From contig NC_086108.1 in the NCBI RefSeq assembly GCF_963921235.1, positions 26,040,001 through 26,104,000 on the forward strand: DNA of 64,000 nucleotides, in the 5' to 3' direction. The first letter of the stretch is position 1. Each line of letters begins with the position of its first letter. The notes beneath the pieces were generated by a model. That model was not told the DNA's origin. It worked only from the letters and a program-made list of their open reading frames with translations, and did not search any database. Shown piece by piece: positions 14,011 through 58,900 of this stretch. This DNA comes from Mobula hypostoma (lineage: Eukaryota). The position numbers and the translations under genes were made by a program.

Positions 14011-14061
14011 CAGGGGTTTCCAACCTTTATTATGCCGTGGACCCCAGGTTGGCCACCCCTG
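14011..14061. mobile_element. 51-bp hAT/Charlie-type MITE with 8-bp TSD
   Basis: TIRs caggggtttccaacct / aggttggccacccctg; flanks gtctagat (14003-14010) and gtccagat (14062-14069). Confidence 0.85.
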
Positions 14062-14187
14062 GTCCAGATGAATCGTCTTGACCTAAAATGTTGACTGTCC
14101 ATTTCCTTCCATACCTGATCCATTGAGTTTCTTCAGCTTTTTGTCTATTGCTCCAGATTCCAGCATCAGCAGTTTATTGTATCTCCA
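14062..14187 (+). mobile_element. Decayed Penelope terminus (host of the MITE)
   Basis: gatgaatcgtcttgacctaaaatgttgactgtcc...ccagattccagcatcagcag resembles the other Penelope termini in the window. Confidence 0.65.
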
Positions 14188-14329: not shown

Positions 14330-14667
14330 CCTTTGCCTCCCTCTGGTGCTCCTTCCCCCTTTTTTGTTTCCATGGCCTTCTGTTCTCTCCTATTAGATTC
14401 ACTCTTCTCCAGCCCTGTATCTCTTTCACCAATCAACTTCCCAGTTCTTTACTTCACCGCTCCCCCTCCCAATTTTACCTATCAACTTGTGGTTCTTCCA
14501 CTCCTCCCTTCTAACTCTGACTCCTCATCTTTTTTTCTCCAGTCCAGTCCAACTGAAGAGTCTCGGCCCAAAGCGTCGACTGTACATTTTTCCATTGCTG
14601 CTGAGTTCCTCCATCATTTTGTGTGTGTTGCTCGGATTTCCAGCATCTGGAGAATTTCTTTTGTTTG
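14330..14667 (+). mobile_element. Penelope terminal region (pyrimidine-rich, decayed ribozyme)
   Basis: tctctcctattagattc...gtctcggcccaaagcgtcgactgtac...gatttccagcatctggagaatt. Confidence 0.8.
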
Positions 14668-15904: not shown

Positions 15905-17669
15905 ACAAGACATTATAAGGAACAACAACAATTTAAGCTAGGCCCACTTATGGAGGAATATCATTATCAAAATAATTTTGAATCTTTCAATTCTCTACTT
16001 AAGAGAACTATGGCCATGTCATCTAACACATTCGAAAGCAAGATAAATATTTAAAATAAGGATGTTAAAATGTATGAAATTGTTAGGGAGCATTCTGGAG
16101 TTAGGGTGTATGGTAAATATTAATTTCAACAGAAACCATCTTCAGGTTTGGATGTGGATTGGGGTTGATTACAAACCAGTAAACACCCATTCACTTGACG
16201 TCTGCACATGCATGAGTCCAGAGAGAGAGAATGCTGATTAACATTCATTATGGGTGTCTGGAGTGTGGGTGTGAAGAAGGAGGTTTTCGAAAATTATATG
16301 TAATTCAAAGGAAGCAGTGTAGGTACATTGTAACTATAGAATTGTCCTGCTGTTACCTTTGATATTTAGCATATAGAAATGTCATGTAATATCAGGCAAG
16401 CCACCTCTTCCAAAAGTGGTTTGAATGGCTCCTCGCTTGGCTGAATAAATGCTTCCATATCCACCTAGGTTCAGTGTCTCTTCGGTGACTTTGTTCACAG
16501 ATACAAAGAGTGCAAATGCAAAACGTGGAACTGAGTCCAAGATCAGATCTTATTAAATGACCCAGCAGCTTTGAGGGCCAACTGATTACCTCCAACTCGA
16601 CCTGCTGAGTTTTTCTAGCAGGTTATGTTTTGGTTTGTGTTGTAGCATCAGTAGACTTTTACATCTCCAGCTCCTGTTCCTTACATTCCAATGTTCAATG
16701 AAGAACAAACGCTTTGTGACTATCCCTTCCACACTATCCATGTCCACTCTCCCTCCAGGTGGGTTTGAGATACCAGAGTCTGAGGAGGCCATGTTTAACA
16801 GATTCAGGATAAGCCATGGAGAAAGTGGTACAGCTTTCACAAGGATCTTTAAGATAGTTTTCTACATCTTTGAAGTTAATTCTCCTACCAAATATTTGGG
16901 CGGTTCGGCAAATTAAGTAAATAAATGAGGAGACTATTGCTTTGATACATCATTATACTTTGTAATAAATAATCTTTCAGTAAAATTAAAGCTGTAACAA
17001 AATACTCTCATGGCATTAAAACTTCTAAATGATATAAGGTATTCTAAAAGCTATTTTGAAGTGTTAAGCGATGGGTGGCTTTCCATTGTTTCTAATCTTA
17101 CCTATTCTGCATAATATATCCTGGGAGAGAGAAACTATGGAAGAATTAAAGTTTCAGTTCAAAAGAAATTTTAAGGGAAAAATTTCAATTTACATATTTT
17201 AAGTGGCGGATGGAAATGTTCAATGTCAGCAATGATCTGACACAGCAGGAGAACTGCTGCTAAAATGTCAATAACTTGAAGAAGCCCAACTTTGTTAAAA
17301 TCAAAGGCAGACTGCAGTGATGCTCCTTCATTACATGGATGATTAATATGATTAATGAGCCCTCAGAGAGCTGAAGGAAATGTTTAGTTTGTTGAAAACA
17401 AGTGCATTTTGCATGGCCTATTTTTATTCTGCATGATAATTTACTAAAGTAAATACTGAAGGACAGTGGGGGCTTGATCTGACTGAATATTGGAGTATAG
17501 CCCCTAGACTGGACACAGGAGGTACCTAATAAAGTGGCTACTGGGTGCAAATTTGCCAATGACACGACTGCTGTTGATGGTGACGATGAGACATACAGGG
17601 TATCAAGGTGGACAACATCTGGGGGATGCAGGATGTTGTCTTCAGGTTATCACAGCTATGGCAGACACC

Positions 17670-21459: not shown

Positions 21460-21616
21460 AAACGACAGGAATTCTGTAGATGCTGGAAATTCAAGCAACA
21501 CACATAAAAGTTGCTGGTGAACACAGCAGGCCAGGCAGCATCTCTAGGAAGAGGTACAGTCGACGTTTCAGGCTGAGACCCTTCGTCAGGACTAACTGAA
21601 GGAAGAGTGAGTAAGG
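21460..21616 (-). mobile_element. Short Penelope terminus insertion with TSD
   Basis: Near-identical to 42375-42530; GACAGTTC at 21450-21457 and 21617-21624. Confidence 0.9.
21558..21593 (-). ncRNA. Minimal type I hammerhead ribozyme motif (Penelope)
   Basis: AGUC CUGACGA AGG gucucag CCU GAAA C GUC GACU: both core boxes, helices I and II, GUC triplet. Confidence 0.75.
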
Positions 21617-22085: not shown

Positions 22086-24799
22086 CTTTCAAAGTTACTT
22101 AAATAAAGTACAATCCAATGTACTTATATTCATGGTTAATAATTTAATGGAACCTTGTGTTACAGGGTAAGAGGCAGTGAATACCAGTGAATGGATGTAA
22201 TCTTGCTTTACTGAAGAGAAGTACAGTATATATTAGTTATGTCCCGTATTAGGAGTACTGTTTTAATAGCTTTTAACAAATCATCTGCACTCTGTTACTC
22301 TAAGTACATACTTTGAAGTTTGATTTTATAAAACTTTCCCCGAGGCAAATTATGAGTAGCATGGCATAGACTTTGAGAACACATTAAAAGGGAATGCATA
22401 ATCAGATAAAGTTCAATGCAGGTCAGTCTAGACTGATGCAGACTGGGTATAAGAAAGGGAAGAGATGATACAGTTTAAATGCCGTTACTTTGAGCAGGGT
22501 GCAAATGTTGATGGAAGCAGCAGTGTATTTCACAAAACCTACAGTCAGGTTGATGATGTAAGTCAAAAGAAAGAACAACAAACAATCTCCTGGAAGAACT
22601 GAGAGGGTCAAGCAGCATCTGTGGGAGGAAAGGAAGTGTCAATGCTTTGGGTCAAACCCCTCATAAATGTCAGATAAAAGAACGGAAGGGGATTAAATAC
22701 AAAAGCAAGACTGTGAAAGCCATATCCTTTGTTCAAAACATCAACACACGCAACTGATGAAATAGAATTCCAAAATGGTGACATAAATCTGCAATTATTT
22801 TAGGACTGATTGAATGTTGAAATGAGTCTGGATTTGCTGCATAGATGAAACAATTAAGATGAGCAAGATGTCCTTCCTTGTGGTTATCTTGCAATGTTGC
22901 AGTCTCTGTATACAGTAACTCATTCGCCATTGTAGATCATTGTGGAACATGTTGCATAATTCTAAACCAGAAGCCATTCTAAAATCACCTACTGTAGAGC
23001 CAATTCATTATTACATGCAGATCAGTATTGTCATGTCATTTGAAACTCAAAGACAGAATTGTCAGTGTGATCCATTATTTGTCACCAGCTAACTGAAAAT
23101 GTGGGATTAGGTACCAAAATAAAACAATTACATCATTGCTCTTGTCAAAGCTGTTGAAGTGATTTTATGAATTTACTGGAAATACAGCTTTCTTGATTAT
23201 TACATTTGCAACAAGACATCAAGAAGTGTTCTGTGCACTTTATAAAGAATATCTACTGTACCTGGAAAAGCACACTTTTTTGTGGGATAAGGAATTCAAT
23301 TTCAATAAAAAATTCCTCAGAGAGGAAAATAGTGTATAGGACATCCCTATGCATACGTACCAGTGATAGTATTCATTTGACATGAGAACGCATGGAGAAA
23401 TTAGACTAATGCATTGAGGTTCAATGGTACAAGTTACATACGTACCTGGATGTCACCTTTATGATTTCATTGATACGTACAGTCATAATATTACAAGGTC
23501 ACCTATTTAGAGAGAGAGGCCTAAATAGTCCAATAATGAGAAGCAGCATCCAATTTAATGAAAACACTCATCTTTCTTTTCTTTGGCCCAGTTACTCCCT
23601 TGCATCCTGGTTTCAGCGACCCACAACCATCACTTGACTCCCCATCTTCACATCCTACCTAATTCTCAACCCTACTCACAATCTACCAACCAACTCACAA
23701 ATCCAAACTGATAAGCCATCAACCCTTCTCCAATACTTCTTCCTCCACATATTCCCACTCCCAACAATGATCCCTGGCAGCTGGCTCCCACTCCACTTAC
23801 TTTACTGAAAGTAAATTGCTCCTACTCTCAGAGGGTCATTTCCACGTAACCAGCCTCTGTCCTTCAGCTGGACTTTGTGAGCTGGAATGCTACTGAACTA
23901 AAGAATCCGCTGTCTTGAGGCATAAACGTTGCATGCTGATAATGATATCGGATGGATATTTGTAAAATGTTCTTTAATTATCTAACCAGAATCCACCTTT
24001 AAAAGAAATAGATACTTCTTAAAAATAATCTACTTATTTAAATCCTGCAGTGTTACAGTCGCAGAATGCTATTTCATTATCCCTGATTTATTTTGGATTT
24101 GCCATTACTTAAAGAAATAAGAATGAAGAATTCCTTATCATTTAGTGCCAATAAAAATCACATTATCAGATTCACTGGCCAGAAGTAACAGTGGGGGTCA
24201 AAATTGTCTCCAGTCATCCATCAATGAGTAATAAACAAGCAACCAACTATAACAAGAATGCATCTGTTTTTAATTAAATCTAGTTACCTTTTATTTATTG
24301 CCTGCAGGAGCAAAACTTAAGCCTGATAGAGTATGTAAACAGGTCTCCATGCATTAGGGTTTGAAATTGGGGTGAAATTAGCTTTCACCATTATTGACAA
24401 GATTAAATTGCTAGCCTGTTTATATAATATTCTTAATTTCCTTTCTGATTGAAGTCACTTAATAGCAGTTGGTTCAGTAAGATGAAAAGCAGACTGACCC
24501 TTTGTTGCTTCCCATTAGCTTATTTCCTGCATGTGCTTCAGATTAATTTTGCTCCCCATCATACTAAACGAGTGGTAAATAATTTAACATAGGTCTTGGA
24601 TTACTTTATCTCATGAAAGCACTAATTCTTTGGAAGAGTAAATTTTTCCAAGTTCAGTGATGTACAGATATACTTAAATATAAGTGTATAATATTTGGCA
24701 TTGGAGATCTTACACAGAAAATGAACTAACACGCTTAGAAATGTGATTGACTAGAAGTAATTGTGTATAAACTTTACTGACTACTGAATGCTATTCAGT

Positions 24800-26335: not shown

Positions 26336-29300
26336 GTAACATGATGGTTAGCACAATGCTTTACAGTACCAGAGACCCGGGTTCAATTCCTACTGCTGTC
26401 TGTAAGGAGTTCTGCCCGTGACCGTGTGGTTTCTCCCAGATGCTCCAGTTTGATGGGGCAAATTTGTAGCCATTGGGATGAGTTGCAGTGCAATAAAGTT
26501 GCAGTGAAATCAAAGTGAAAAGTATCAAATACTGGTCTTAAGGTGTTGTACTTAAATGCACGCAGTATAAGGAATAAGGTGGATGATCTTGTCGTACAGC
26601 TACAGATTGGCAGATATGATATTGTGGCCATCACTGAGACGTGGCTAAAGGATGCATGTCTCTGGGAGCTGAACGTCCAAGGATACAAGGTGTATCGGAA
26701 GGATAGGAAGGTAGGCAGAGGGAGAGGTGTGGCATTATTGGTAAGAAATGATATTAAATCATTGGAAAGAGGTGATATAGGATCAGAAGGTACAGAATCT
26801 TTATGGGTTGAGCTAAGAAATAGCAGGGGTAAAAGGACCCTGATGGCAGTTATTTATAGGCCTCCAAACAGCTGCAGGGATGTGGACTACAAATTATAAC
26901 TGGAAATAGAAAAGGCTTGTCAGAAGGGCAGTGTTATGATAATTGTGGGGAATTTTAACATGCGAGTGGATTGGGAAAATCAGGTCGGCACTGGATCTCA
27001 AGAGAGAGAATTTGTAGAATGTCTGCGAGATGGCTTTTTAGAACAGCTTGTTGTTGCGCCCACTAGGGGATCGGCTGTACTGGATTGGGTATTGTGTAAT
27101 GAACCAGAGGTGATTAGAGAGATTGAGGTGAAGGAACCTTTAGGAGGCAGTGATCATAACATGATTGAGTTCACTGTGAAATTTGAAAAAGAGAAGCTGA
27201 CATCTGATGTGTCGGTATTTCAGTGGAGTAAAGGAAATTACAGTGGCATGAGAGAGGAACTGGCCAAAGTTGACTGGAAAGGGACACTGGCGGGAAAGAC
27301 AGCAGAGCAGCAGTGGTTGGAGTTTATGTGAGAAATGAGGAAGGTGCAAGACAGGTATATTCCAAAAAAGAAGAAATTTCAAGTGGAAAAGGGATGCAAC
27401 CGTGGTTGACAAGAGAAGTCAAAGCCAAAGTTAAAGCAAAGGAGAGGGTGTACAAGGAAGCAAAAATTAGTGGGAAGACAGAGGATTGAGAAGTTTTTAA
27501 AACCTTACAAAAGGAAACCAAGAAGGTCATTAAGAGGGAAAATATTAGCTATGAAAGGAAGCTAGCAAATAGTATCAAAGAGGATACTAAAAGCTTTTTC
27601 AAATATATAAAGAGTAAAAGACAGGTGAGAGTAGATATAGGACCGATAGAAAATGATGCTGGAGAAATTGTAATGGGAGATAAGGAGATGGCGGAGGAAC
27701 GGAACGAGTATTTTGCATCAGTCTTCACTGAGGAAGACATCAGCAGTATACCGGACACTCAAGGGTGGCAGGGAAGAGAAGTGTGCGCAGTCACAATTAC
27801 GACAGAGAAAGTACTCAGGAAGCTGAATAGTCTAAAGGTAGATAAATCTCCTGGACCAGATGGAATGCACCCACGTGTTCTGAAGGAAGTAGCCATGGAG
27901 ATTGCGGAGGGATTAGTGATGATCTTTCAAAAGTTGATAGATTCTGGCATGGTTCCGGAGGACTGGAAGAATGCATATGTCACTCCGCTATTTAAGAAGG
28001 GGGCAAGGAAGCAAAAAGGAAATTATAGACCTGTTCGCTTGACATTGGTGGTTGGGAAGTTGTTGGAGTCGCTTGTCAAGGATGAGGTTACAAAGTACCT
28101 GGAGGGATATGACAAGATAGGCAGAACTCAGCATGGATTCCTTAAAGGAAAATCCTGTCTGACAAACCTATTACAATTTTCTGAGGAAATTACCAGTAGG
28201 CTAGACAAGGGAAATGCAGTGGATGTTGTATATTTGGATTTTCAGAAGGCCTTTGACAAGGTGCCACACATGAGGCTACTTAACAAGATAAGAGCCCATG
28301 GAATTACGGGAAAGTTACATACGTGGATAGAGCATTGGCTGATTGGCAGAAAACAAAGAGTGGGAATAAAGGGATCCTATTCTGGTTGGCTGACAGTTAC
28401 CAGTGGTGTTCCACAGGGGTCCGTGTTGGGGCCACTTCTTTTTACATTGTACATCGACCATTTGGATTATGGAATAGGTGGCTTTGTGGCTAAGTTTGCT
28501 GATGATACGAAGATAGGTGGAGGGGCCGGTAGTGCTGAGGAAACGGAGAGTCTACAGAGAGACTTGGATAGATTGGAAGAATGGGCAGAGAAGTGGCAAA
28601 TGAAGTACAATGTTGAAAAGTGTATGGTTATGCACTTTGGCAGAAAAAAATAAATGGACAGACTATTATTTAAATGGGGAAAGAATTCAAAATTCTGAGG
28701 TGCAACGGGACTTGGGAGTCCTCGTACAGGATACCCTTAAAGTTGACCTCCAGGTTGAATCAGTAGTGAAGAAGGCGAATGCAATCTTGGCATTCATTTC
28801 TAGAGGAATAGAGTATAGGAGCAGGGATGTGATGTTGAGGCTCTATAAGGCGCTGGTGAGACCTCACTTGGAGTACTGTGGGCAGTTTTGGTCTCCTTAT
28901 TTAAGAAAGGATGTGCTGACATTGGAGACGGTACAGAGAAGATTCACTAGAATGATTCCGGGAATGAGAGGGTTAACATATGAGGAACGTTTGTCCGCTC
29001 TTGGACTGTATTCCTTGGAGTTTAGAAGAATGAGGGGAGACCTCATAGAAACATTTTGAATGTTGAAAGGCATGGACAGAGTGGATGTGACAAAGCTGTT
29101 TCCCATGATGGGGGAGTCTATTACAAGAGGGCATGACTTAAGGATTGAAGGGCGCCCATTCAGAACAGAAATGCGAAGTAATTTTTTTAGTCAGAGGTTG
29201 GTGAATCTATGGAATTTGTTGCCACGGGCAGCAGTGGAGGTCAAGTCATTGGGTGTATTTAAGGTAGAGATTGATAGGTATCTGAGTAGCCAGGGCATCA

Positions 29301-29572
29301 AAGGTTAGGGTGAGAAGGCGGGGGAGTGGGACTAAATGGGAGAATGGATCAGCTCATGATAAAATGGCGGAGCAGACTCGATGGGCCGAATGGCTTACTT
29401 CTGCTCCTTTGTCTTATGGTCTTATGGTCTTATGGTCTTCTTCCCAGTCTAAAGGCGTACCAGTGGTAGGTTAATTGGTCATTGGAATTGTCCTATAGTT
29501 AGGCTAGGGTTAAATTGGTGGCTGAAGGGCCAGAAGGGCCTGTTCCATATTGTCTCTCAATCAATAAACAAA
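26336..29572 (+). mobile_element. HE1-like SINE (26336-26451 plus 29440-29572) split by a CR1
   Basis: Head ggttagcacaatgctttacagtacc..gggttcaattcc..gatgctccagttt continues as cttcccagtctaaagg..gggccagaagggcctg, colinear with 5159-5440. Confidence 0.85.
26452..29439 (+). mobile_element. CR1 LINE, near-complete ORF2 (EN and RT) pseudogene with 3'UTR
   Basis: YLNARSI, ITETWL, YRPP, GSDHN, QHGF, DFQKAFD, PQGS, FADDTK; several stops and a frameshift in an A-run near 28650; (TATGGTCT)3 tail. Confidence 0.97.
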
Positions 29573-32290: not shown

Positions 32291-33177
32291 GAGTTGGGCA
32301 GGTATGTAGATAAGAAAAGGGTCTAGGGACACATGAGGCAAATCAGGAAAATTGGACCATTTGGGCCAAAGAGCCTGTTTCATGCAGTATAAATCTATAT
32401 GAAATTCAATTTGGTCTCGTTTTCCTGTGCCATGTCAAAGATAAGTCGCTTGTATAGTATAATTCCTTAAGATGATTTAACAACCTCATCTGAAATCAAT
32501 AAACATTTACACTTCTGCTAATATTTTTGAAATTTTATGTTAAAATATTTTAAATCAATCAATTTGTTTAAGGCACTGACACCCAGCTCTTTGGAATCTC
32601 TATTTATTTTGACAGCACTCTGTGGTATGTGATGTGACATTATATATCATACATCTGTCACCCGGAATGTTTATGTGACAGGTAGCACTTCATATATGCA
32701 ACAGGCACTTTCAAAATTAGTCTGCTTCAGCGGAATTGTCATAAATTTCTCTTGTCATCGCCAGTGCATTGCCCCTTGGTCAACACTGCTGAAGATCCTC
32801 CTTGCCTTAATCCATGATACGCATCACACTTCTAGCCAATGTCAAGATAGATGATTCTCCCAGTGACATTACTCTAAAGAAGAAATCAACTGGATTTTGC
32901 AACAAAACATCTCTATACTCAGGAAAATATCACTAGCAGATATGCCAATGAATATTCAATTGAGCAATGGCAATGTTCATTAAAGAAACAGCATAGGCAT
33001 AAGGAAACTCATCAAAACTGAGTCACAAGAACAGACAGATGAAAAATAGGAGCGGGAATAAGCCAGCAGGCCCCTCTAGCCTGTCCCACAATTCAATGTG
33101 ATCTAGGCTAACCTATGCTCAGCTCTAGAAACCAAAGTAAAACATGCATTTATGTAAAAGTATTCAAATATATCAAT

Positions 33178-33995
33178 ACAACACACACACAAAATGCCAG
33201 AGGAAATCAGCAGGTCAATCAGCATCTAGGGAAAAGAGTAAACAGTCAACATTTCAGGCTGAGATCCTTCTTCAGGACTGAGAAGGAAAGAGGAAGATGC
33301 CAGAATAAAAAAAGTGGAGGAAAAGAGGCAGCTGGAAGGTGATGGGTGAAGCCAAGTGGGTGGGAAAGGTCAAAGGCTGGAGATGAAAGAATCTGATAGG
33401 AGAAGAGAGTGGACCATAGGAAAAAGTGAAGTGGGGGGACCCAGGGGGAAATTATTGGCAGGTAAGAAGAAGTAGTAGGTCAGAGTGGGGAATAGAGGAA
33501 GGGTAGGGTGAAATTTATTTTACCATCAGGTTGGAGGATACCCATGTGAAACATAAGCAGTTGCTGCTCCACCCTTAGGGGTGACCTCACCTTAGCACAA
33601 GAGGGGGCCATGGATCAACACATTGGAACCGGAATGGGATCGGTGAACAAAATTCCAACTCCCAATCCCCACGCTGACTTTTTACCTCTTCTTATCTGCC
33701 CATTACTTCACCCTTAGTCACCTCCTCCTTCCCTTTCTCCTATTGTCTACTCTCCTCTCCTATCAGATTCCTTCTTCTCCCACCCATCTGGCTTCACCTA
33801 TCACCTTCCAGCGAGCATCTTTCCCCTCCCCCTACCTTTTAAATCAGGCATCTCCCGACTTCCCTCTCAGTTCTGAAGAAGGGTCTTGGCCCAACACATT
33901 GACTGTTTACTCTTTTCCATAGATCCTTCCTGACCCGCTGAGTTCATCCAGCATTTTGTTTTGGATTTCCAGCATCAGCAGATTTTCTCTTGTTT
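33178..33995. mobile_element. Inverted pair of Penelope termini (minus 33178-~33645, plus ~33665-33995)
   Basis: aatctgataggagaagagagt and ctcctctcctatcagattc are reverse complements; a ribozyme-like box lies in each arm (33243-33280 and 33868-33905). Confidence 0.85.
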
Positions 33996-34474: not shown

Positions 34475-37400
34475 TGTAGAAGATGCTTGACCAAAATGCA
34501 GAGCAGTGGAGACAATTAAGCGGAGAGCGATAACTTTAATAATAAACTTCAAATTAGCAAGCCACAAAGGGCTAAAAAGCAAGACAGTAATGATACTCAA
34601 CACAAGTAACAAAGGGCTAGGAGCAACTGATTGAAGCTGTCAGGCTCAATGGGTGAACAAGAACTGCGAAAGAGAGCTGGGTTTAAACAGGCTGAAGGTG
34701 AAGAGTTGGTAATGAGTGGCAGGTAACTCCTGTGGAGACTGGGAGGGTTTGCCTAGGCAGGCCTGACAGGGCCCTCTTCCCACCCCACAGCCGACACTCG
34801 AAGGCCCAAGACAATCCAGATGCATCCAGTGAGACTTCTTGATGAGCCATCGATCCAAAATGAAACTGGACAGCACCCAAGATCTCTCCTCCGGGCTGTA
34901 CCATTTGCAGTCTGCCAAGTGCTGCACACCCTATCCATAATGACATGAAAATATTAACCAGTGAACCATGTACATTGGACCACCCTCCACCATCCTAGGT
35001 TCCAGAGGTGCAGTCTCAAGTGGGTTGGATGGTCCATAGTCAATAGGCTTGAGGCAGGACAGGTGGAAGTTAGGTGTAATCCTGAGGGATAATGCAGCTA
35101 GAGACAGTAAGTGATGGGTAACCTTGTAAGGACCAATGAACTGGGGTGAGAACTTGCACAAGTCAGTGCGCATGGGCAGATCTCGCATAAAAAGCCAGAC
35201 ACTGTCCCCAGGCCAGATTAGTCTAGGTGGGCAGTTGCCCTGCTGGCAGTAGGCACAGTTGGCAACCAGAATGGCCCTTCCAAGCCTTCTGGCAGTGGGA
35301 ACCAGGGACCTGGCAGATGGGAACTCTACCAAAGCCCTGATGCACTTGAAATGGTTATATCCCTCTGGCAGAAGACATGTGTAGATTATGAGCAAGCTCA
35401 GCCCAGAGCAGATATGCCTTCCATGTGAAAGGATTAGAGGCAGCGACTCATCGCAGATAGTTCTCCCCTTGCTGATTGACTCTTTCTTACTGGCCATTGG
35501 TCTGTGGATGATAACCAGAGGACAAATGTACTGAGGTACAGATGAGGGAGAAGAAGGCTCACCAGAAGCGGTAGATGAATTGTGGGCCTCAGTCCAATAC
35601 AGTGTCCTGAGGAAAGCTGTAGAGGCAAACTACATGTTGGAGAACCAGGTCTGTCGACTCAGTGGCCAATGGAACTTTGTGTAGGGCAATGAAGGGAGCC
35701 ACCTTGGAAAACGAGTCTAATCACGATGGCCCCATTGGAAAGAGGCAAACCTGTGATGAAATCCATGGTGATGTGGGATCATAGGCGTCAAGGAACAAGT
35801 TGGGACCATAGTAGCCCAGAGGGCCGCTGATGGGGGGAATTATACTGGGTACATTGAAGGCAGGTAGTAATGAATTGATGTACATCTGTGATCATTGTGG
35901 GCCACCAGAACTGGTATTGCAGAAAATCGAGAGTCTGTTGTGAGCCTGGTTGGTTGGAGAACGTGAGGAATGGACCCACTTGAGTGCTTCACAGTGAATA
36001 TCTACCAGTACATACACGCAGTTGTCAGGGGTGTCAGCCAGAGCAGGCCCATGCTGTAGTGCCCATGGTGGATCTGGTTCTCAAGGTCCCAGATGATAGG
36101 AGCAAAGGTAAATGAGGATGAAATGATAGGCTGAGGGTTGATCTCCATTTCAGCTAGGTCAAATTGTTTTGACAGGACATTCATCTTCATGTTCTAGGAG
36201 GCAGGTCAGTAGGAGATAGTGGAATTCAATTGCTCACAGAAGAAGGACCAGCAAGCCTGGTGGGGTGAGTTGGCGGGTCTGTTGCATGCATATGTGATTC
36301 TAGTGTCAGTACAGATGAGGAAGGGTTCAGTGTTTTCCGTCAACCAATGTCTCCAGTTCTGCAAGGCCCATTTAGCTCCTGTCTCCTACCCCATAATTAT
36401 GCTATGTAGAGCTGAATTTGCCAGAGAAGAAAGCACAAGGATATGTCTTGCTGGGAAAGGATGGGTCCAACATCCATGTCAGATATGTCCACAAAAAGGT
36501 CCAGAGGTGTCCGAATGGTGGAGAATGGGAGCTGTGGTGGTGCCTCTAGAGGTTCCTCAAGAGCGTGGTCAGTGGCAACAGACCACGTTATTCATGAGGT
36601 AGGTGACTTAGTGAGGGAGGGGGAGGAGCGGCGATTTGGTTGTAGTTTCTGATGAAATGGCGGTGGAATTTGAAAAAGCACAAGAAGCGCTATAACTATT
36701 TGAGGGAGTGCGGTCAGGTCTGTTCAATGGCACTGTTCCCTTTCTCTGGGTCCATGGTTATTCCTTGGGGTGAAAGGATGTAACCCATGAGGGACATGAC
36801 TGGGGTGTGGAACTGCAATTTCTCCAACTTGCAGTACAGTCGGTTTTTGAGGGGACTTAAGGACTAACTGGACGTGACAGACGTGGCCTTGGAGAAAATG
36901 AGGATGCTGTTGAGGTAGATTAACACATACCAATGTAACATGCCTTGGAAGATTTTGTTAATGAAGACTTGGAAAACAGCTGGACTGTAGAAAAGTCCAA
37001 AAGGCCTTACCAACTATTTGTAGTGGCAAGTAGGTGTTCCGAACATCGCCATCCAATCATCCCCTGGTGGATACGGATCAGGTTGTACTAGCTGTGTATG
37101 TACGACCATTTGGTGAAGATCTAGTCCCTGTGGAATGTTTTGCATGTGCATTTCTATCAAGGGGAGAGGGTAGCAATTCTAACTGGTGCTACTGTTGAGT
37201 GCACAATAATCAATAGAGGGGTGAAGACTCCCATCTTTCTTTTTGTTAAAGAAGAATTCTGCACCAGCTGGTGCCTGGAATGGATGAATAAACCCATATT
37301 CAGCAATATAATTATTACTTGCTTGGATGTCAGGAGGGGAGACGGAAAACAGACAACCTCGGGAATGGTCAGTGTCTGAGAGGAGGTCAATCATGCAGTC

Positions 37401-42000: not shown

Positions 42001-42470
42001 GAAATATTTGTCACCACACATATCATTGTTAAGTCTAACTTTTTATCACTTTTCACCAGAGTGACTTTATTCACTAATGTACTTTATTCAGTAATAATGT
42101 TGCTGTTCCTCACAAGCATACTCTCCTTACCATCAAAGTAGTCACAGTAAAATTGATTATCTGTGTGCATACATGTCACCACACACAATGCTGCGATTCT
42201 TTTTCCTGTGGGCATATTAGCAAATCTATAGAACAGTAACTGTAAACAGGATTGATGAACAACAAACCGTGCAAGTGCAAATATAAATAACTAGAAACAA
42301 AGAATGAGTATGAAATGGCAAGATAAAGAATCATTAAAGTGAGACCATCAAAAGTGGGAACACCAGAAATAGAAACAACAGGAATTCTGCAGATGCTGGA
42401 AATTCAAGCAACACACGTCAAAGTTGCTGGTGAACGCAGCAGGCCAAGCAGCATCTGTAGGAAGAGGTGC

Positions 42471-42506
42471 AGTCGACGTTTCAGGCCGAGACCCTTCGTC
42501 AGGACT
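42471..42506 (-). ncRNA. Minimal type I hammerhead ribozyme motif (Penelope)
   Basis: AGUC CUGACGA AGG gucucgg CCU GAAA C GUC GACU. Confidence 0.78.
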
Positions 42507-42803
42507 AACTGAAGGAAGAGTGAGTAAGGGATTTGAAAGTTGGAGGGGGAGGGGGAGATCCAAAATGATAGGAGAAGACAGGAGGGGGAGGGATAGAGCC
42601 GAGAGCTGGACAGGTGATAGGCAAAAGGGGATACGAGAGGATCATGGGACAGGAGGTCCGGGAAGAAAGACAAGGGGGGGGAGGTGACCCAGAGGATGGG
42701 CAAGAGGTATATTCAGAGGGACAGAGGGAGAAAAAGGAGAGTGAGAGAAAGAATGTGTGTATAAAAATGAGTAACGGATGGGGTACGAGGGGGAGGTGGG
42801 GCC

Positions 42804-43634
42804 TTAGTGGAAGTTAGAGAAGTCGATGTTCATGCCATCAGGTTGGAGGCTACCCAGACGGAATATAAGGTGTTGTTCCTCCAACCTGAGTGTGGCTTCA
42901 TCTTTACAGTAGAGGAGGCCGTGGATAGACATGTCAGAATGGGAATGGGATGTGGAATTAAAATGTGTGGCCACTGGGAGATCCTGCTTTCTCTGGTGGA
43001 CAGAGCGTAGATGTTCAGCAAAGCGGTCTCCCAGTCTGCGTCGGGTCTCGCCAATATATAAAAGGCCACATCGGGAGCACCGGACGCAGTATATCACCCC
43101 AGTCGACTCACAGGTGAAGTGTTGCCTCACCTGGAAGGACTGTTTGGGGCCCTGAATGGTGGTAAGAGAGGAAGTGTAAGGGCATGTGTAGCACTTGTTC
43201 CGCTTACACGGATAAGTGCCAGGAGGGAGATCAGTGGGGAGGGATGGGGGGGACGAATGGACAAGGGAGTTGTGTAGGGAGCGATCCCTGCGGAATGCAG
43301 AGAGAGTGGGGGAGGGAAAGATGTGCTTAGTGGTGGGATCCCGTTGGAGGTGGCGGAAGATACGGAGAATAATATGTTGGACCCGGAGGCTGGTGGGGTG
43401 GTAGGTGAGGACCAGGGGAACCCTATTCCTAGTGGGGTGGCGGGAGGATGGAGTGAGAGCAGATGTACGTGAAATGAGGGAGATGCGTTTAAGGGCAGAG
43501 TTAATAGTGGAGGAAGGGAAGCCCCTTTCTTTAAAAAAGGAAGACATCTCCCTCGTCCTAGAATGAAAAGCCTCATCCTGAGAGCAGATGCGGCGGAGAC
43601 GGAGGAATTGCGAGAAGGGGATGGCGTTTTTGCA
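42804..43634 (-). CDS. Penelope ORF C-terminus (RT thumb, linker, GIY-YIG endonuclease), 5'-truncated
   Basis: Frame is open from the element edge: CKNAIPFSQFLRLRRICS..VPLVLTYHP..GVIYCVRCSRCGLLYIGETRRRLGDRFAEH..EQHLI..PDGMN. Confidence 0.9.
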   Translation of the reverse strand, partial: CKNAIPFSQFLRLRRICSQDEAFHSRTREMSSFFKERGFPSSTINSALKRISLISRTSALTPSSRHPTRNRVPLVLTYHPTSLRVQHIILRIFRHLQRDPTTKHIFPSPTLSAFRRDRSLHNSLVHSSPPSLPTDLPPGTYPCKRNKCYTCPYTSSLTTIQGPKQSFQVRQHFTCESTGVIYCVRCSRCGLLYIGETRRRLGDRFAEHLRSVHQRKQDLPVATHFNSTSHSHSDMSIHGLLYCKDEATLRLEEQHLIFRLGSLQPDGMNIDFSNFH

Positions 43635-44006
43635 AGAAATAGAATGAGTGTTGTTATCCTCTTTTGTTCAATTGCCTGATGATTGAGGTATCACTGAAAT
43701 TATACTCTCTGCCTTGTGGGTTTGAATTCTGTAAATGGTTTCCTTATGTGAACCCTCTCCCAACTTCTTAATACTGGGTAGTATTTACTGCTCTTAGCTA
43801 TATGAGTTGCCAGACCATTGGTTTAAGTCAGTTCACTTGCTATCTACCACAAGAAAAGTTCATCATTGCCCTGTTCTGATACAGGTGTCTGTGTGTCAGT
43901 CACTCACTCCACATTAAACAAAGTCATGAATGGGCGTTCTCCATTAAGGGAATCTAACCTAACATCCTAATTATGAGGATTCTGGTTAGCCTTTACTCTC
44001 AGGAAA

Positions 44007-46060: not shown

Positions 46061-47089
46061 CATGGTAGCTCTTTGACTTGAAGCGTTATTTTTATCTCCT
46101 TTCACAGATGTTGCTTGGCCCACTGAGTTTTTCCAACAATTTTCTGTTTCTACTTCTGATGACTCTTTCTCTGCTCTTAAGGTATCATAATGTCTGCTAC
46201 TGGGACTCAATCACACAGAACAAGAGTTCCTTGAGACACAGACATCTCTCCTGGAGATTTGCCTGATTGGGCCCCTATGGACCTCTGCTAACTTCTGCAT
46301 GCTCAAAGCTTTGACAGTTGTTATGGAACAGGAGTGACGGCAGGTTGAACAGAATAAGGCTGAAAAGAACTAGAAAAAGAAAGCAGAGACACAGCAAATG
46401 GGCTGGTATCCCTGTGAGACCAGCCGACACATCAGTCAACTGATATATGGCATTCAAAAACAAATTGTCCTTTCAGGCAGACTTCAGAGGAACACTTGGA
46501 CAGGTGTCCTTGTTGACAAGTGAACTATGAAAAGATCAACAAGATCAGACAGTTGATGTTATGTCAGCAGAACTAATATGAAGAGATTGCATTAGACTGC
46601 TAATGCATTCAAAACCTGAGCATCAAATGTAAAATAGACTAACAGTCAATATCTGATTAAATGAGATGGAAATAAAAAAGCAGGAAAGTGACAGTGCAAC
46701 AAACCAAAGACTCTTGAAGCAGCAGAGCTGATGAAGTAGCGATCAGATATAATGCTGTTAAATAATTCGTTGCAAATCTGAGAAACAACATTTCTAAGTT
46801 GCTCAACAACAACCAAACCCTCCATTTCAAGTAGATAATAAAGTCTTTACTAGATCCTGACTCATTGTTATCTTAACTGTAATTGAACTGATATGGAGGA
46901 AAATAATGTGCACATTTAAATCACAAGGCCAAAAAGAATTAAAAATAGAAATGGGAGAACTATCATTGTTCTGCAGTTTATGGCTGCTTTCTCCACAAAG
47001 ATCCAACTGGTGAAAGGACATGGATTTACTTAATTGATGCAAATTGAGAGGAGTACAGTTTTGAAATTGATTTATCGTTCTCAAAGTAC

Positions 47090-48210: not shown

Positions 48211-48640
48211 TGTGATTGTGATCAGCCACCAGGAGAGATTGGAGCTGGAGATATAGACATTTTTGCTCTACATAACAAAATACTGGAGAGACTCTTGGAA
48301 ATACTGCATCATACTGGAGAGACTCTTGGAAGAAGAGTGACCCTATATTAAACCACATATTATATAAAGAACAAAGGTAACAAACGCACAATTTCTATAG
48401 TTACAATGCATTCATAATGCTTCCATTCAGTTGCACATAATTTCAAACATCTAGATTTTCACACCAACTCACCCAAATCACCACTGAGCTGCATTCATAC
48501 ATATGCAGATATCTCAGGTGAACGGGTGCTTCCTGGTTTGCAATCAACCACAGTCTGCATCTCCAGGAAGATCATTGTTCTGAGCTGCATTTTAAACTCA
48601 ATTTACAGTCCATATTCAGATCTGAAGAATGGTTGCTGTT

Positions 48641-48740
48641 GCTGATGAAGGGTCTCAGCCTGAAATGTCGACTGTACTCTTTTCCATAGATGCTGCCAGG
48701 CTTACTGAGATCCTCCAGCATTTCATACGTGTTACTTGGA
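48641..48740 (+). mobile_element. Penelope terminus beginning at the ribozyme core
   Basis: ctgatgaagggtctcagcctgaaatgtcgactgtactcttttccatagatgctgcc. Confidence 0.8.
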
Positions 48741-48779
48741 AAAGCATGAAGGGTTGTTAAGAATGTAGGATCAATGGAT

Positions 48780-49713: not shown

Positions 49714-50790
49714 CATAGTGTCATAGAGTCATAGAACACCACAGCAGAGAAACAGACCATTTGGTCCATCTAGTCCATACTAAACTGCTACACGAGGAAA
49801 TCTGCAGATGCTGGAATTTCAAGCAACACACATAAAAGTTGCTGGAGAACGCAGCAGGTCAGGCAGCATTTCTAGGAAGAGGTACAGTCGACGTTTCGTG
49901 CCAAGACCCTTCGTCAGGACTAACTAAAAGAAAATCTAGTAAGAGATTTGAAAGTTGGAGGGGGAGGGGGAGATCCAAAATGATAGGAGAAGACAGGAGG
50001 GGGAGGGATGGAGCCAAGAGCTGGACAGGTGATTGGCAAAAGGGATATGAGAGGATCATGGGACAGGAGGCCTGGGGAGAAAGAAAGGGGGAGGGGGAAG
50101 CCCAGAGGATGGGCAAGGGACAGGGACAGTGAGAGGGACAGAGGGAGAAAAAGGAGAGAGAGAATAAGAATGTGTGTATATATATATATAAATAAATAAA
50201 CAACCAAACAAACAAATTGATTTGTTATTCTGTTGGGTCCATTGAACCACACCTGGACCATAGCCCTCCTCACCCCTCCCATCTATGTACTTAACCAAGC
50301 TTATTTTAAATTTTGCAATCTGCTGGCAACTCATTCCATACTCATGCCAACATCTGAGTGAAGTAACCCGAAGAGTTCTGGCCTGAAACTTTGGCTGACC
50401 GTTTCCACAGATGCTGCCGACCTGCAGAGTTCCTCCAGCGTGTTGTGAGTGTTGCTTTGACCCCAGCATCTGCAGAGTATTTTGTGTCCCCCTTCGGGTT
50501 TCCCTTAAATATTTCACCTTTCACCCTTAATCTGTGTTCCACTCCCACGCAAGCTCAGTGGAAAAAGCCTGCTTGCATTTACCCTTTCTATACCTCATAA
50601 TCTTATATACCTCTATCGAATATCCCTTCAATCTTCCATGTTCGAGGGAAAAAAGTCCTAACCCATTCAACCATTCTTTGTAACTCTGGTCCTCAAGTCC
50701 TGGCAACATCCTTGTAAATTTTGTCTGTACTCTTCCAGTCTTACTCATATATTTCCCTTAGGTTGGTGACCATAACTTCACACAAAGATG
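49714..50790 (-). mobile_element. CR1 3' end with two Penelope termini inserted (minus 49790-~50215, plus ~50365-50490)
   Basis: Minus ORF VQTKFTRMLPGLE..LGLFSLE; (TCTATGAC)-like tail; 49790-50180 matches 42375-42770. Confidence 0.85.
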
Positions 50791-51449: not shown

Positions 51450-53218
51450 GGATACCATTCCAGTCCATCAGAAAATTGTCTCCTGCACCATCACTAATCT
51501 CATCAACGCTGAAGAACTCCCATCCACTGCCATCGAACTCATAGTTCCCTTACCTCACATAGCTTAGATTGACCTCCTACCCAAAAACCTGACTCTGCAG
51601 ATAGGCCCATTGTCTCTGCCAGCTGCTGCCCCACTGAAGTTGTGTCCACATAATCTGGCTCCATTCTATCCCCATTAGATGAGTCCTTTCCCACTTACAT
51701 CCATGACAGTTCCACATGCTCTCGATCTCCTTAACAACTTTCAATTCCCTGTCCCTGACTGCATCATTTTCACCATGGATGTCCGGTCCCTATACACTTC
51801 TAACTCCCATCAAGAAGACTAAATCTCTCCGCTTCTTTCTTAAAAAAAACTAACCACCACCCTCCTCCATCTTGTAGAACTGGTTCTCATTCTCAATAGC
51901 TTCTATGTCAACTCCTCTCATTTTCTCCATACACAGGGGATATCCATGGGCACCTGCATGGGAACCCAGCTATGCCAGTCTTCTTGTTGACTATATAAAA
52001 CAGTCCATGCTCCAAGCCTTCTCTGATAATATTCCCCAACTCTTCCTGCACTACATTGATAACTTTGCTTCATCAAATTCATCAACTTTGCCTCCAGCTT
52101 CCGCCTTGCCCTAAAATTCACTTGGTCCATTCCTGACACCTTCCTCCCTTTCCTTGATCTCTCCATCTCCATCTCTGTAGACAAACTGTCTACTTATATC
52201 TGCCTACCAATTTCATGTTGCCCTCACCCACATCTCCTTCATTTCCTGTCATCCGTGCTTACTCCATCTTCCTGTCTCCTGAACAAGGATAGAGTTTCCC
52301 TTTTCCTCACCTAACACCCCATGAGCCTCCTCATCCAACACGGCTCTCCACAACTGTTGCCATTTTCAACAGGATCCTACCACCAAGCACATCTTTACCT
52401 CCCTCAACTCTCTACTTTCCAAGGATTGCTCCCTCTGTGATTCCCTTGTCTATTTGTCCCTCTCCCACCTGCCAGATATCCCTGCAAATGACAGAAATGC
52501 TACACTTGCTCATTTATCTCCTCCCTTATCTCCATTCGGGGTCCCATACAGTTCTTCCTGATGAGGCAACACTTCACCATAAGTGTGGTCACTTATTGTA
52601 CCCAGTGCTCTCTATGAGGCCTCTTATACGTAGGAGAGACCTGTCGTAAATTGGGGAACTGCTTTGTTGACACCTCTGCTCGATCCACCAAAAATGGAAT
52701 TTCCTGTTGGCCAACTATTTTAATTCCTATCCCCATTCCCATTCCTACAGGTTAGTCCTTGGCTTCCTCTTTTGCAACAATGAGGCCACTCTCAGGGTGG
52801 AGAAGTAACACCTCATATTCTGTCTAGGTAGCCTCCAACCTGATGGTATGAACATAGATTTCTCCTTTCAGTATTTGTATTTCCCTCCTTCTTCTCCCTT
52901 CTTTTATTCCTCACTCTGACCTCTCACCTTTTCTCTCTACCTGCCTATCACCTTCCCCTACTACCCCATCCCCTTTCCTTCTTTCTTCCCTTTCTCCTAT
53001 GGTCCACTCTCCTCTCCTATCAGATTCCTTCCTCGCCAGCCCTTTTACATTTCCTACGCACCTGTCTTCACCTGTCACCCTCCTGCTATTCTCCTTCCTT
53101 GCCCACCACCTTTTTATTCTGGTGCCTTCTCCCTTCCTTGGTAGTCCTGAGGAATGGTCTTGGCCCATAGGTGATACCTGATCTGTTGAGTGCTTCCAGC
53201 ATTTTGTGTGTGTTGCCT
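51450..53218 (+). mobile_element. Degraded Penelope-like element (RT, GIY-YIG and terminus)
   Basis: LLPK..RPIVSASCCPTE, FTMDVRSLYT, MGTCMGPSYA, FLHYID, YVGET; 52280-52870 is colinear with the reverse complement of 42800-43430. Confidence 0.88.
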
Positions 53219-53221
53219 GTT

Positions 53222-55618: not shown

Positions 55619-55896
55619 GAGCTAGGAAGGGCGTTGAGAAAAAGGACCACAAAGGTAGTAATCTCGGGATTACTGCCTGTGCCACGTGACAGTGAGAGTA
55701 GGAATGCGATGAGGTGAAGGATAAATGCGTGGCTGAGGGATTGGAGCGGGGGCAGGGATTCAAGCTTTTGGATCATTGGGACCTCTTTTGGCACAGGCGT
55801 GACCTGTACAAAAAGGACGGGTTACACTTGAATCCCAGGGGGACCAATATCCTGGCAGGGAGATTAGCGGGGGCTACTGAGGTGACTTTAAACTAG
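55619..55896 (+). pseudogene. CR1 ORF1 C-terminus (SGNH esterase-like), with one stop and one frameshift
   Basis: VVISGLLPVPR..R*RINAWLRDW, then a frame change to GFKLLDHW..LYKKDGLHLNPRGTNILA..TLN*. Confidence 0.88.
55887..55893 (+). promoter_or_regulatory. Putative -1 frameshift slippery site T_TTA_AAC
   Basis: X_XXY_YYZ heptamer in the ORF1 frame, directly before the ORF1 TAG; the -1 frame is ORF2. Confidence 0.55.
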
Positions 55897-55901
55897 AATG
55901 G

Positions 55902-58900
55902 TTGCGGGGTTGGAATCAAATTAAAGAGGCTAGGCGTGAGGAGGTTAGTTCACAACAGAGGGATGGGAACCAGTGCAGAGAGACAGAGGGGTGTAAAGTG
56001 AGCGTAGAAGCAAAAAGTACAAAGGAGAAAAGTAAAAGTGGCAGGCCGACAAATCCAGGGCAAGCATTAAAAAGGGCCACTTTTCAACATAATTGTACAA
56101 GGGCTAAGAGAGTTGTAAAAGAGTGCCTGAAGGCTTTATGTGTCAATGCAAGGAGCATTCATAATAAGGTGGATGAATTGAAAGTGCAGATTGTTATTAA
56201 TGATTATGATATAGTCGGGATCACAGAGACAAGGCTCCAGGGTGACCAGGGATGGGAACTCAACGTTCAGGGATATTCAATATTCAGGAGGGATAGACAT
56301 GAAGGAAGGGGAGGTGGGGTGGCGTTGCTGGTTAAAGAAGAGATTGACGCAATAGAAAGGAAGGACATAAGCCGGGAAGATGTGGAATCGATATGGGTAG
56401 AGCTGCGTAACACTAAGGGGCAGAAGACGCTGGTGGGAGTTGTGTACAGGCCACCTAACAGTAGTAGTGAGGTCAGAGATGGTATTAAACAGGAAATTAG
56501 AAATGTGTGCAATAAAGGAACAGCAGTTATAATGGGTGACTTCAATCTACATGTAGACTGGGTGAACCAAATTGGTAAAGGTGCTGAGGAAGAGGATTTC
56601 TTGGAATGTATGCGGGATGGTTTTTTGAACCAACATGTCGAGGAACCGACTAGAGAGCAGGCTATTCTGGACTGGGTTTTGAGCAATGAGGAAGGGTTAA
56701 TTAGCGATCTTGTCATGAGAGGCCCCTTGGGTAACAGTGACCATAATATGGTGGAATTCTTCATTAATATGGAGAGTGACATAGTTAATTCAGAAACAAA
56801 GGTTCTGAACTTAAAGAGGGGTAACTTTGAAGGTATGAGACGTGAGTTATCTAAGATAGACTGGCAAATGACACTTAAAGAATTGACGGTGGATATGCAA
56901 TGGCAAGCATTTAAAGGTTGCATGGATGAACTACAACAATTGTTCACCCCAGTTTGGCAAAAGAATAAATCAAGGAAGGTAGTGCACCCGTGGCTGACAA
57001 GAGAAATTAGGGATAGTATCAATTCCAAAGAAGTAGCATACAAATTAGCCAGAGAAAGTGGCTCACCTGAGGACTGGGAGAAATTCAGAGTTCAGCAGAG
57101 GAGGACAAAGGGCTTAATTAGGAAGGGGGAAAAAGATTATGAGAGAAAACTGGCAGAGAACATAAAAACGGACTGTAAAAGCTTTTATAGATATGTAAAA
57201 AGGAAAAGACTGGTAAAGACAAATGTAGGTCCCCTGCAGACAGAAACAGGTGAATTGATTATGGGGAGCAAGGACATGGCAGACCAATTGAATAATTACT
57301 TTGGTTCTGTCTTCACTAAGGAGGACATAAATAATCTTCCAGAAATAGTAAGGGACAGAGGGTCCAGTGAGATGGAGGAACTGAGTGAAATACATGTTAG
57401 TAGGGAAGTGGTGTTAGGTAAATTGAAGGGATTGAAGGCAGATAAATCCCCAGGGCCAGATGGTCTGCATCCTAGAGTGCTTAAGGAAGTAGCCCAAGAA
57501 ATAGTGGATGCATTAGTGACAATTTTTCAAAACTCGTTAGATTCTGGACTAGTTCCTGAGGATTGGAGGGTGGCTAATGTAACCCCAATTTTTAAAAAAG
57601 GAGGGAGAGAGAAACCGGGGAATTATAGACCGGTTAGCCTAACGTCGGTGGTGGGGAAACTGCTGGAGTCAGTTATCAAGGATGTGATAACAGCACATTT
57701 GGAAAGCGGAGAAATGATCGGACAAAGTCAGCATGGATTTGTGAAAGGAAAATCATGTCTGACGAATCTCATAGAATTTTTTGAGGATGTAACTAGTAGA
57801 GTGGATAGGGGAGAACCAGTGGATGTGGTATATTTGGATTTTCAAAAGGCTTTTGACAAGGTTCCACACAGGAGATTAGTGTGCAAACTTAAAGCACACG
57901 GTATTGGGGGTAAGGTATTGGTGTGGGTGGAGAATTGGTTAGCAGACAGGAAGCAAAGAGTGGGAATAAACGGGACCTTTTCAGAATGGCAGGCGGTGAC
58001 TAGTGGGGTACCGCAAGGCTCAGTGCTGGGACCCCAGTTGTTTACAATATATATTAATGACTTGGATGAGGGAATTAAATGCAGCATCTCCAAGTTTGCG
58101 GATGACACGAAGCTGGGTGGCAGTGTTAGCAGTGAGGAGGATGCTAAGAGGATGCAGGGTGACTTGGATAGGTTGGGTGAGTGGGCAAACTCATGGCAGA
58201 TGCAATTTAATGTGGATAAATGTGAAGTTATCCATTTTGGTGGCAAAAATAGGAAAACAGATTATTATCTGAATGGTGGCCGATTAGGAAAATGGAAGGT
58301 GCAACGAGACCTGGGTGTCATTATACACCAGTCATTGAAAGTGGGCATGCAGGTACAGCAGGCGGTGAAAAAGGCGAATGGTATGCTGGCATTTATAGCG
58401 AGAGGATTCGAGTACAGGAGCAGAGAGGTACTTCTGCAGTTGTACAAGGCCTTGGTGAGACCACACCTTGAGTATTGTGTGCAGTTTTGGTCCCCTAATC
58501 TGAGGAAAGACATCTTTGCCATAGAGGGAGTACAAAGAAGGTTCACCAGATTGATTCCTGGGATGGCAGGACTTTCATATGAAGAAAGACTGGATGAACT
58601 GGGCTTGTACTCGTTGGAATTTAGAAGATTGAGGGGGGATCTGACTGAAACGTATAAAATCCTAAAGGGATTGGACAGGCTAGATGCAGGAAGATTGTTC
58701 CCGATGTTGGGGAAGTCCAGAACGAGGGGTCACAGTTTGAGGATAGAGGGGAAGCCTTTTAGGACCGAGATTAGGAAAAACTTCTTCACACAGAGAGTGG
58801 TGAATCTGTGGAATTCTCTGCCACAGGAAACAGTTGAGGCCAGTTCATTGGCTATGTTTAAGAGGGAGTTAGATATGGCCCTTGTGGCTACAGGGGTCAG

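Follow-up and report, generated by a model that had tools for sequence, protein, structure and literature searches.

The minus-strand motif at 42471-42506 is, with high probability, a minimal hammerhead located in the terminal repeat at the 3' end of a Penelope-like element (PLE) that is truncated at its 5' end and likely belongs to the Neptune clade. The full-length parent would be expected to use two such motifs, assisted by protein, for slow cutting of tandem transcripts; the lone copy seen here is predicted to be inert. Comparison with related loci supports its identification as a hammerhead by descent, a type I form that lacks helix III and appears to be built for use as a dimer. The window in which it lies is the whole stretch of 64,000 nucleotides from Mobula hypostoma that was analysed. 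The main rival reading, that cleavage hardly matters to the element, overlaps with the preferred one on what the copy at 42471-42506 is.

The letters of the motif are exactly as first annotated. Read from 42506 to 42471 on the minus strand, they include both core boxes, CUGACGA and GAAA, with GUC as the NUH triplet. Helix I comprises 4 bp (AGUC/GACU), with a possible fifth pair, U-G, and the proposal that helix III is reduced to the palindrome ACGU holds good, there being no helix III hairpin in the motif. Helix II has to be redrawn. The initial annotation gave it 3 bp, AGG/CCU, but it is better drawn as 4 bp, GGGU/GCCU, after one unpaired A. Over 24 aligned motifs from related loci, 96.9% of the helix II cells are paired in this register, compared with 56.9% in the earlier one, the first pair of which forms in just 2 of the 24; RNAfold gives 0.96 for the corrected register and 0.02 for the other. 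In all 25 sense core matches in the related loci an extra, unpaired base separates position 9 from 10.1. Since the related motifs all have an unpaired A after A9, followed by G10.1 paired with 11.1, helix II in the present motif is assigned 4 bp with a CUCG loop and a G10.1-U11.1 pair.

The published consensus of minimal hammerheads (min-HHRs), CUGANGAH-G...C-GAAAN-palindrome-NUH, has G10.1-C11.1 in more than 80% of cases (PMC4209133), as do 24 of the 25 related-locus matches, whereas the motif at 42471-42506 has G-U. Is this U simply a product of CpG decay, private to one copy? Contigs from four public sequencing runs (9937, 7255, 41 and 106 contigs on 510 bases, none on record as RNA) indicate otherwise. 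C at 11.1 makes up 20%, 29%, 6% and 39% of contig depth in runs X1, X4, X19 and X9, with U the majority, and the mirror change at G12 reaches just 2-3% in X1 and X4, all these figures being depth-weighted and biased toward the reference. The U majority in four runs implies that G10.1-U11.1 is a subfamily trait. Nor can the pair be put forward as a novelty: several published rows also have G-U at this position (PMC4209133), so that it falls inside the known range. The statement that PLEs carry minimal type I hammerheads thus describes a published kind (PMC4209133) which the present motif fits; judged by its letters, it has the min-HHR sequence features examined, with its G-U pair within the published range.

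Could such an arrangement have come about by chance inside a repeat? The folding energy of the motif is ordinary (z -0.4), and an Rfam search with E up to 5 gave 8 weak matches, none of them a hammerhead, Rfam having no model for it; both results would suit a chance origin. The loose two-box pattern, however, occurs 16 times in the window against 6.0 expected, a count reached in 0 of 100 shuffles. The full descriptor has two matches in the window, at 42502 and 21589, both on the minus strand, compared with a mean of 0.01 in 100 two-letter-block shuffles of the window.

Related loci point the same way. These were the best 80 of 422 confirmed, 57 of which have enough DNA downstream of the ORF. 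For these 57 loci the strict descriptor scored 17 in sense, 1 in antisense and 0 in shuffles. When only the two boxes were sought, with no pairing required, they were found within 500 nt after the ORF end in 25 of the 57 loci in sense and in 2 of the 57 in antisense. The 24 distinct sense matches form helix II of at least 3 bp in every case, helix I of at least 3 bp in 21, and the palindrome with UH in 19; the two antisense matches form neither helix. Covariation of helices I and II was confirmed across the 24 aligned motifs, with 94.6% of cells paired against 65.1% when shuffled and 24-36% when slid, and with 70 double-sided changes against 20. The palindrome pair covaries too (C-G 21, U-A 2 and G-C 1 of 24). 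The 24-row alignment was chosen with a pairing descriptor and its covariation applies across related elements, not inside the family of the 42471-42506 copy, so that the two-box selection, made without pairing, serves as the non-circular check. A covariance-model search for the minimal hammerhead likewise succeeded, giving 57 matches in 46 of the 80 related loci; the 10 on the minus strand are without exception upstream of the ORF match, the arrangement expected of inverted 5' repeats. One locus, L032, has the complete tandem form: motifs at 269 and 3421 (3152 nt apart) enclose a 936-codon ORF. Many of the related loci represent one coral-type family (about 13 groups by a crude rule), and the counts therefore overstate independence. 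The descriptor shuffles, the strand and position bias in the two-box placement and the covariation across distant hosts nevertheless rule out a chance arrangement, which we find scarcely credible.

Some related loci depart from the common pattern. In a coral-type subfamily C replaces U4 of the first box in five loci (L019 1314-1359, L030 4261-4306, L058 4417-4462, L067 864-909 and L080 3567-3612), a recurring core variant. L015 has an antisense hammerhead near 2030 (-), some 670 nt past the ORF end, with an 8-nt palindrome and no extra A, which probably belongs to another element. In L002-L005 and L012 (42-49% protein identity) neither the pattern nor the covariance model finds the motif in the 500 nt after the ORF end; a subfamily may lack it or have it farther off. 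Among viral contigs there were no exact matches to the motif pattern, nor was there a protein relative.

The setting of the motif is a Penelope terminus, as first proposed: it sits in the terminal repeat, on the sense strand, after a GIY-YIG ORF. The distance of about 300 nt from the stop codon given in the initial annotation measures 297 nt from the TAA (42806-42804) to the start of the motif. The RT core itself is cut off in the copy at 42375-43634, the last 276 codons remaining, and the 10-bp direct repeat that flanks it has a length reached by 5 of 5000 random flanks. The GIY-YIG match (PF01541; E 2.5e-4) scores 21.7 bits, slightly below the 22.6 cut-off. A search with the ORF found 32 longer homologs, many with RT and GIY-YIG domains (PF00078 and PF01541) in one protein, the best being a zebra-shark protein with 63-64% identity, which suggests a cartilaginous-fish host. 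The linker motif, CKRNKCYTC, lies at residue 154, and C197, C200, H219 and H241, the CCHH endonuclease motif, are invariant in the ORF alignment (A1). A CX2-5CxxC linker with a CCHH endonuclease marks Neptune and Nematis (PMC8557442), and the ORF shares 37-46% identity with loci in which the motif corresponds to the one published for Acropora Neptune. These protein marks, together with the Acropora-Neptune-type motif of the closest loci, make membership of the Neptune clade likely. The zebra-shark protein (P0001) extends beyond its endonuclease in residues 505-522, and a hammerhead core, if translated, would give its last residues, LMKG...PKRQ; to go by the protein alone, its gene model probably reads through the terminal repeat.

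Table 1. Features of the motif, its element and the other family copies in the window
Feature	Position	Strand	Remarks
Minimal type I hammerhead motif	42471..42506	-	sequence, descriptor, covariation, folding, covariance model
Helix I 5' arm AGUC	42506-42503	-	
Core box CUGACGA	42502-42496	-	
Unpaired extra A	42495	-	between positions 9 and 10.1
Helix II	42494-42491 with 42486-42483	-	G10.1-U11.1
GAAA box	42482-42479	-	
Palindrome ACGU	42479-42476	-	in place of helix III
C17	42475	-	
Helix I 3' arm GACU	42474-42471	-	
Predicted cleavage site after GUC	42474..42475	-	from hammerhead numbering as in PMC4209133
5'-truncated Penelope-like element, ~1.26 kb	42375..43634	-	
Stop-free ORF remnant, 276 codons + TAA	42804..43634	-	end of RT thumb region, CX4CX2C linker, GIY-YIG endonuclease with CCHH residues
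3' UTR rich in pyrimidines (body of the terminal repeat)	42507..42803	-	
Downstream terminal repeat including optional 35-nt tail	42373..42470	-	family copies end at 42407-42409 or 42373
Likely target-site duplication, 5' copy, 10 bp	43635..43644	-	
Likely target-site duplication, 3' copy, 10 bp	42365..42374	-	
157-nt solo terminal fragment, intact motif 21558-21593	21460..21616	-	8-bp flanking direct repeat (68/5000 random flanks)
Truncated copy	49790..50180	-	motif 49886-49921: intact core, G10.1-C11.1, mismatch at second helix II pair
Older decayed copy without tail	33170..33640	-	motif 33243-33280; changes at 15.2, 17 and helix II; inverted relative to 33700..33995
Older decayed copy with tail	33700..33995	+	motif 33868-33905, GAAA box broken
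Decayed fragment beginning at core box (48642)	48635..48755	+	no helix I 5' arm
Decayed copy	14423..14666	+	motif ~14545-14582, both boxes broken
Heavily decayed copy	14059..14176	+	motif ~14062-14097
Decayed copy	50315..50487	+	profile search
Older broken Penelope-like element	51451..53219	+	RT + endonuclease remnants 51451-52868
Decayed terminal fragment	22579..22667	-	profile search
Weak decayed terminal fragment	46101..46142	+	E 8.7e-5
Weak decayed terminal fragment	16596..16659	+	E 2.4e-4

The motif is one of several in the window. A profile covering 190 nt around it picked up 13 homologous remnants (5 minus-strand, 8 plus-strand), and a reversed-window control gave none; the family takes up about 8% of the window. 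Two of the 13 have intact motifs, 20,913 nt (20.9 kb) apart. The second intact copy, noted from the outset at 21558-21593, was found on the minus strand by the full descriptor. This copy and the six listed as damaged are all homologous to the main motif, although those at 14545 and 14062 are unscored by the covariance model and that at 48642 has no helix I 5' arm. Apart from the main motif, the copies first listed lie on the plus strand, which the initial annotation leaves unsaid, at 48642, 33868, 14545 and 14062 and on the minus strand at 21558, 33243 and 49886; the covariance model recovers 6 of the 8, 3 of which come from its training set. Five further remnants lie beyond that list, at about 50315-50487 (+), 53099-53219 (+), 22667-22579 (-), 46101-46142 (+) and 16596-16659 (+). 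The terminal repeat of the broken element at 51451-53219 has lost the 3' half of the ribozyme, that is, the GAAA box, the triplet and the helix I 3' arm.

A tandem or inverted pseudo-LTR layout is seen in relatives; the window has only an inverted pair at 33.2-34.0 kb. The partners, 33170-33640 and 33700-33995, are 75-78% identical; given that identity, they are possibly two separate insertions. Flanking direct repeats were not significant for this pair or for the 49.8-kb copy. The decayed ends of the pair face away from each other, one tailed and one tail-less, like those of published inverted PLE insertions.

Elements of other kinds are also present. A stop-free 1017-codon ORF at 55881-58934 (+), with endonuclease and RT domains, belongs to a near-intact non-LTR retrotransposon, which we take to be CR1-like, and has a broken relative at about 26519-29308 (+). 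An integrase-core ORF at 20046-20987 (+) and an SH3_Tf2-like remnant at 34931-35629 (-) are of LTR-retrotransposon type. At 8066-9862 (+) a LINE RT fragment is immediately followed by a different LINE fragment with an ALKBH8_N Pfam match, and a nested insertion is likely.

The public contigs show how the family as a whole is built. It is very abundant, as the 9937 contigs of a single run attest. Among the loose ends listed, at least 120 contigs of X1 and at least 73 of X4 end at 42373, and at least 28 and 15, respectively, end at 42407-42409. The two 3' ends are 35 nt apart and lie 67 or 102 nt after the predicted cut, with mixed, A/T-rich flanks. The optional 30-40 bp tail of PLEs is thus present in the family, with 5' truncation, and its two ends fit the tail and the internal RT starts described in PMC11167929 and PMC8557442. 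The tail hairpin is not special (z -0.66). Matches to other subfamilies break off at the two borders of the motif (42470 and 42506), and coverage in the most distant well-covered run peaks at the motif, which suggests that this is the best-kept part. Excess conservation of the motif within the family does not reach significance: of the 20 listed positions at which this copy departs from the majority in X1, none lies within the 36 nt, with about 1.7 expected. No pile-up of starts or ends was seen in the four contig runs, and contigs cannot show RNA ends.

Contig depth is greatest over the last 130 nt, and most copies are short terminal fragments. This could be read to mean that the short copies form a non-autonomous, retrozyme- or SINE-like family that replicates through small circular RNAs, the more so as animal retrozymes derive from PLE terminal repeats and occur in the sole cartilaginous fish sampled in a recent preprint (bioRxiv 10.64898/2026.07.22.740005). 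The copies, however, share 3' ends while their 5' ends are scattered (157 nt, about 390 nt and 1.26 kb), which is what 5' truncation predicts, and an open endonuclease ORF is attached to the main copy. No head-to-tail retrozyme array with at least two intact hammerheads is present in the 64-kb window, where the one close same-strand pair, 14062 and 14545, has 69% identity over 108 nt. Replication of the short copies as retrozymes is thus very unlikely, and we continue with the reading of truncated ends of a coding element.

How might such an element use its hammerhead? Folded alone, the motif is predicted to pair its core with the cleavage triplet (P 0.98), and in its native context the first box is predicted to pair upstream (P 0.81), with the last 40 nt of the 3' UTR. 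Two-dimensional folding models give -11.5 kcal/mol for the double hammerhead, -22.0 for two inactive monomers and -30.3 for the dimer minimum, nearest-neighbour energies that leave out the tertiary core, Mg2+ and protein. The upstream pairing looked like a conserved anti-core switch, being equalled in 0 of 60 shuffles here, but the figures for three other window copies were 5, 20 and 31 of 60, and none of 15 related motifs fell in the top tenth, so that the idea was dropped as a general feature.

Drawing on published PLE work, we envisage the following steps, by which the motif would process element RNA as the initial annotation proposed. A full element in tandem would give a transcript with two motifs, one per terminal repeat, whose ACGU palindromes would pair mutually to make helix III; the element's own protein would probably keep the RNA out of inactive folds and so allow a slow cut after GUC. 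At a nick in A/T-rich DNA, reverse transcription would begin within RNA that is still uncut, at a point 67 or 102 nt beyond the cut site. It would usually halt early, leaving thousands of scattered truncated ends with one motif each. With no partner nearby, the core of each such copy would fold on itself and the copy would then decay, mostly at CpG sites. Published min-HHRs show no cleavage as monomers and low cleavage as dimers (PMC4209133), and for Xenopus retrozyme dimers 1 of 9 cleaved (bioRxiv 10.64898/2026.07.22.740005, a 2026 preprint). The Poseidon element PAc of the green anole, the sole PLE reconstituted in vitro, cleaved only with its protein bound, and its two tail ends were traced to two internal RT start sites (PMC11167929).

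Insertions of the present family carry about 100 nt beyond the cut site, implying that the template is uncut (or re-joined) RNA, and on this analysis cleavage may not matter for mobility. The motif might then be kept as a folded signal (for protein binding, for RT positioning or in connection with a promoter) or be a passenger, with cleavage of little or no part in the life cycle. Ribozyme-dead PAc mutants inserted normally in vitro, and RNA-seq reads neither started nor stopped at the PAc cut site (PMC11167929); Naiad elements spread without the motif, and hammerheads may parasitise PLEs (PMC8557442); and the low dimer activity led to other functions being left possible (PMC4209133). The dominant family form also has the G-U pair at 10.1-11.1, although that pair, as already mentioned, occurs in published motifs. 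Set against this are the retention of all catalytic-core bases, the triplet and the palindrome across distant hosts while the helices covary, as selection on hammerhead chemistry predicts, and the behaviour of the lizard motif, which does cleave with its protein and responds to C3/G8 swaps (PMC11167929). A motif for which cleavage counts for little or nothing is a serious possibility, but an unlikely one, and slow, protein-assisted cutting of tandems by the parent element remains the preferred explanation.

The initial annotation further suggested that copies inside a host intron could cleave pre-mRNA if they dimerise. This finds no support here: no host exon came to light, the intact copies are 20.9 kb apart, and the double hammerhead is placed well above the inactive monomers in modelled energy. 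Composition ranking, Pfam searches with 50 ORFs picked by hand from 616 listed of at least 45 aa, and a crude splice scan revealed no host gene in the window. The lone exon-like candidate, 5874-5813 (-), has a pyrimidine tract, a CAG acceptor and a GT donor, and a PDB search with it gave no identification. More broadly, host RNA might be cut at a meaningful level by dispersed copies in host transcripts, if these paired in trans or, kilobases apart, within one pre-mRNA. The family is very abundant, in principle the palindrome would allow pairing between any two intact copies, and retrozymes are reported to be depleted from Xenopus introns (bioRxiv 10.64898/2026.07.22.740005); the three intact-core copies in the window also all lie on the minus strand, but chance alone would put all three on a single strand in 1 case in 4. 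In addition to the lack of an identified host gene, inactive folds are predicted to be favoured by 10-19 kcal/mol, even adjacent copies show little activity as dimers in published work (PMC4209133), and the copy 7,415 nt upstream of the motif has a broken helix II. We consider such cutting most improbable. The same low standing attaches to its fullest form, in which host transcripts running through the family's very many near-identical, palindrome-bearing half-ribozymes would pair in trans with the help of the element protein and be cut at GUC, giving genome-wide, dose-dependent cutting of host RNA that shapes insertion survival in cartilaginous-fish genes; if true, dispersed copies cutting host RNA in trans would add a new layer of transposon-host interaction.

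We conclude that the preferred reading, a minimal hammerhead in a truncated PLE terminus, adds to the range of the published motif a host group that the original alignment lacks (PMC4209133). That paper lists no cartilaginous fish in its Table S1 or in the text of Fig. S3, and a literature search, with most subscription papers outside it, found no report describing such a motif in these fish. The copy is also a clean example whose borders are mapped: it has direct repeats, the two tail ends are placed at 67 and 102 nt beyond the cut, and U11.1 as well as C11.1 occurs in its family. PLE hammerheads may be required for processing or may be passengers, and the abundance of the present family makes it well suited to a study of strand bias or RNA ends.

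The closest known system is the published min-HHR (PMC4209133). Shared with it are the type I form, the absence of helix III and loop 3, the palindrome at 15.2-16.2, the extra base between 9 and 10.1, the short helix I, the pyrimidine-rich 5' flank, the occurrence mostly as solo copies of truncated elements, and the inverted pairs 100-700 bp apart; the Acropora Neptune motif of that paper matches the commonest one among the related loci. Apart from the host group, the present motif differs in having helix II at the short end (4 bp) and G10.1-U11.1 for the usual G-C. Neptune PLEs with an endonuclease (EN+) have a single ORF with RT and, at its C terminus, a GIY-YIG domain (PMC8557442), of which just the last 276 codons are found here. 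PAc shares the terminal-repeat hammerhead, two 3' ends about 35 nt apart and A/T-rich insertion flanks, but belongs to the Poseidon clade and has an ORF that starts inside the motif, whereas the element at 42375-43634 has the CX2-5CxxC linker of Neptune and Nematis; protein-assisted cleavage has been shown for PAc (PMC11167929), while for the parent of the present element it is a prediction. Animal non-LTR retrozymes likewise have a type I, dimer-dependent hammerhead from PLE terminal repeats, but are non-coding tandem arrays (bioRxiv 10.64898/2026.07.22.740005) rather than dispersed, 5'-truncated ends of a coding element. The canonical type I and intronic amniote hammerheads, such as that of RECK, share the catalytic core and the type I form but possess a helix III hairpin, a longer (6-bp) helix I, tertiary loop contacts and orthologous conservation (PMC6155905), none of which is seen in the motif at 42471-42506.
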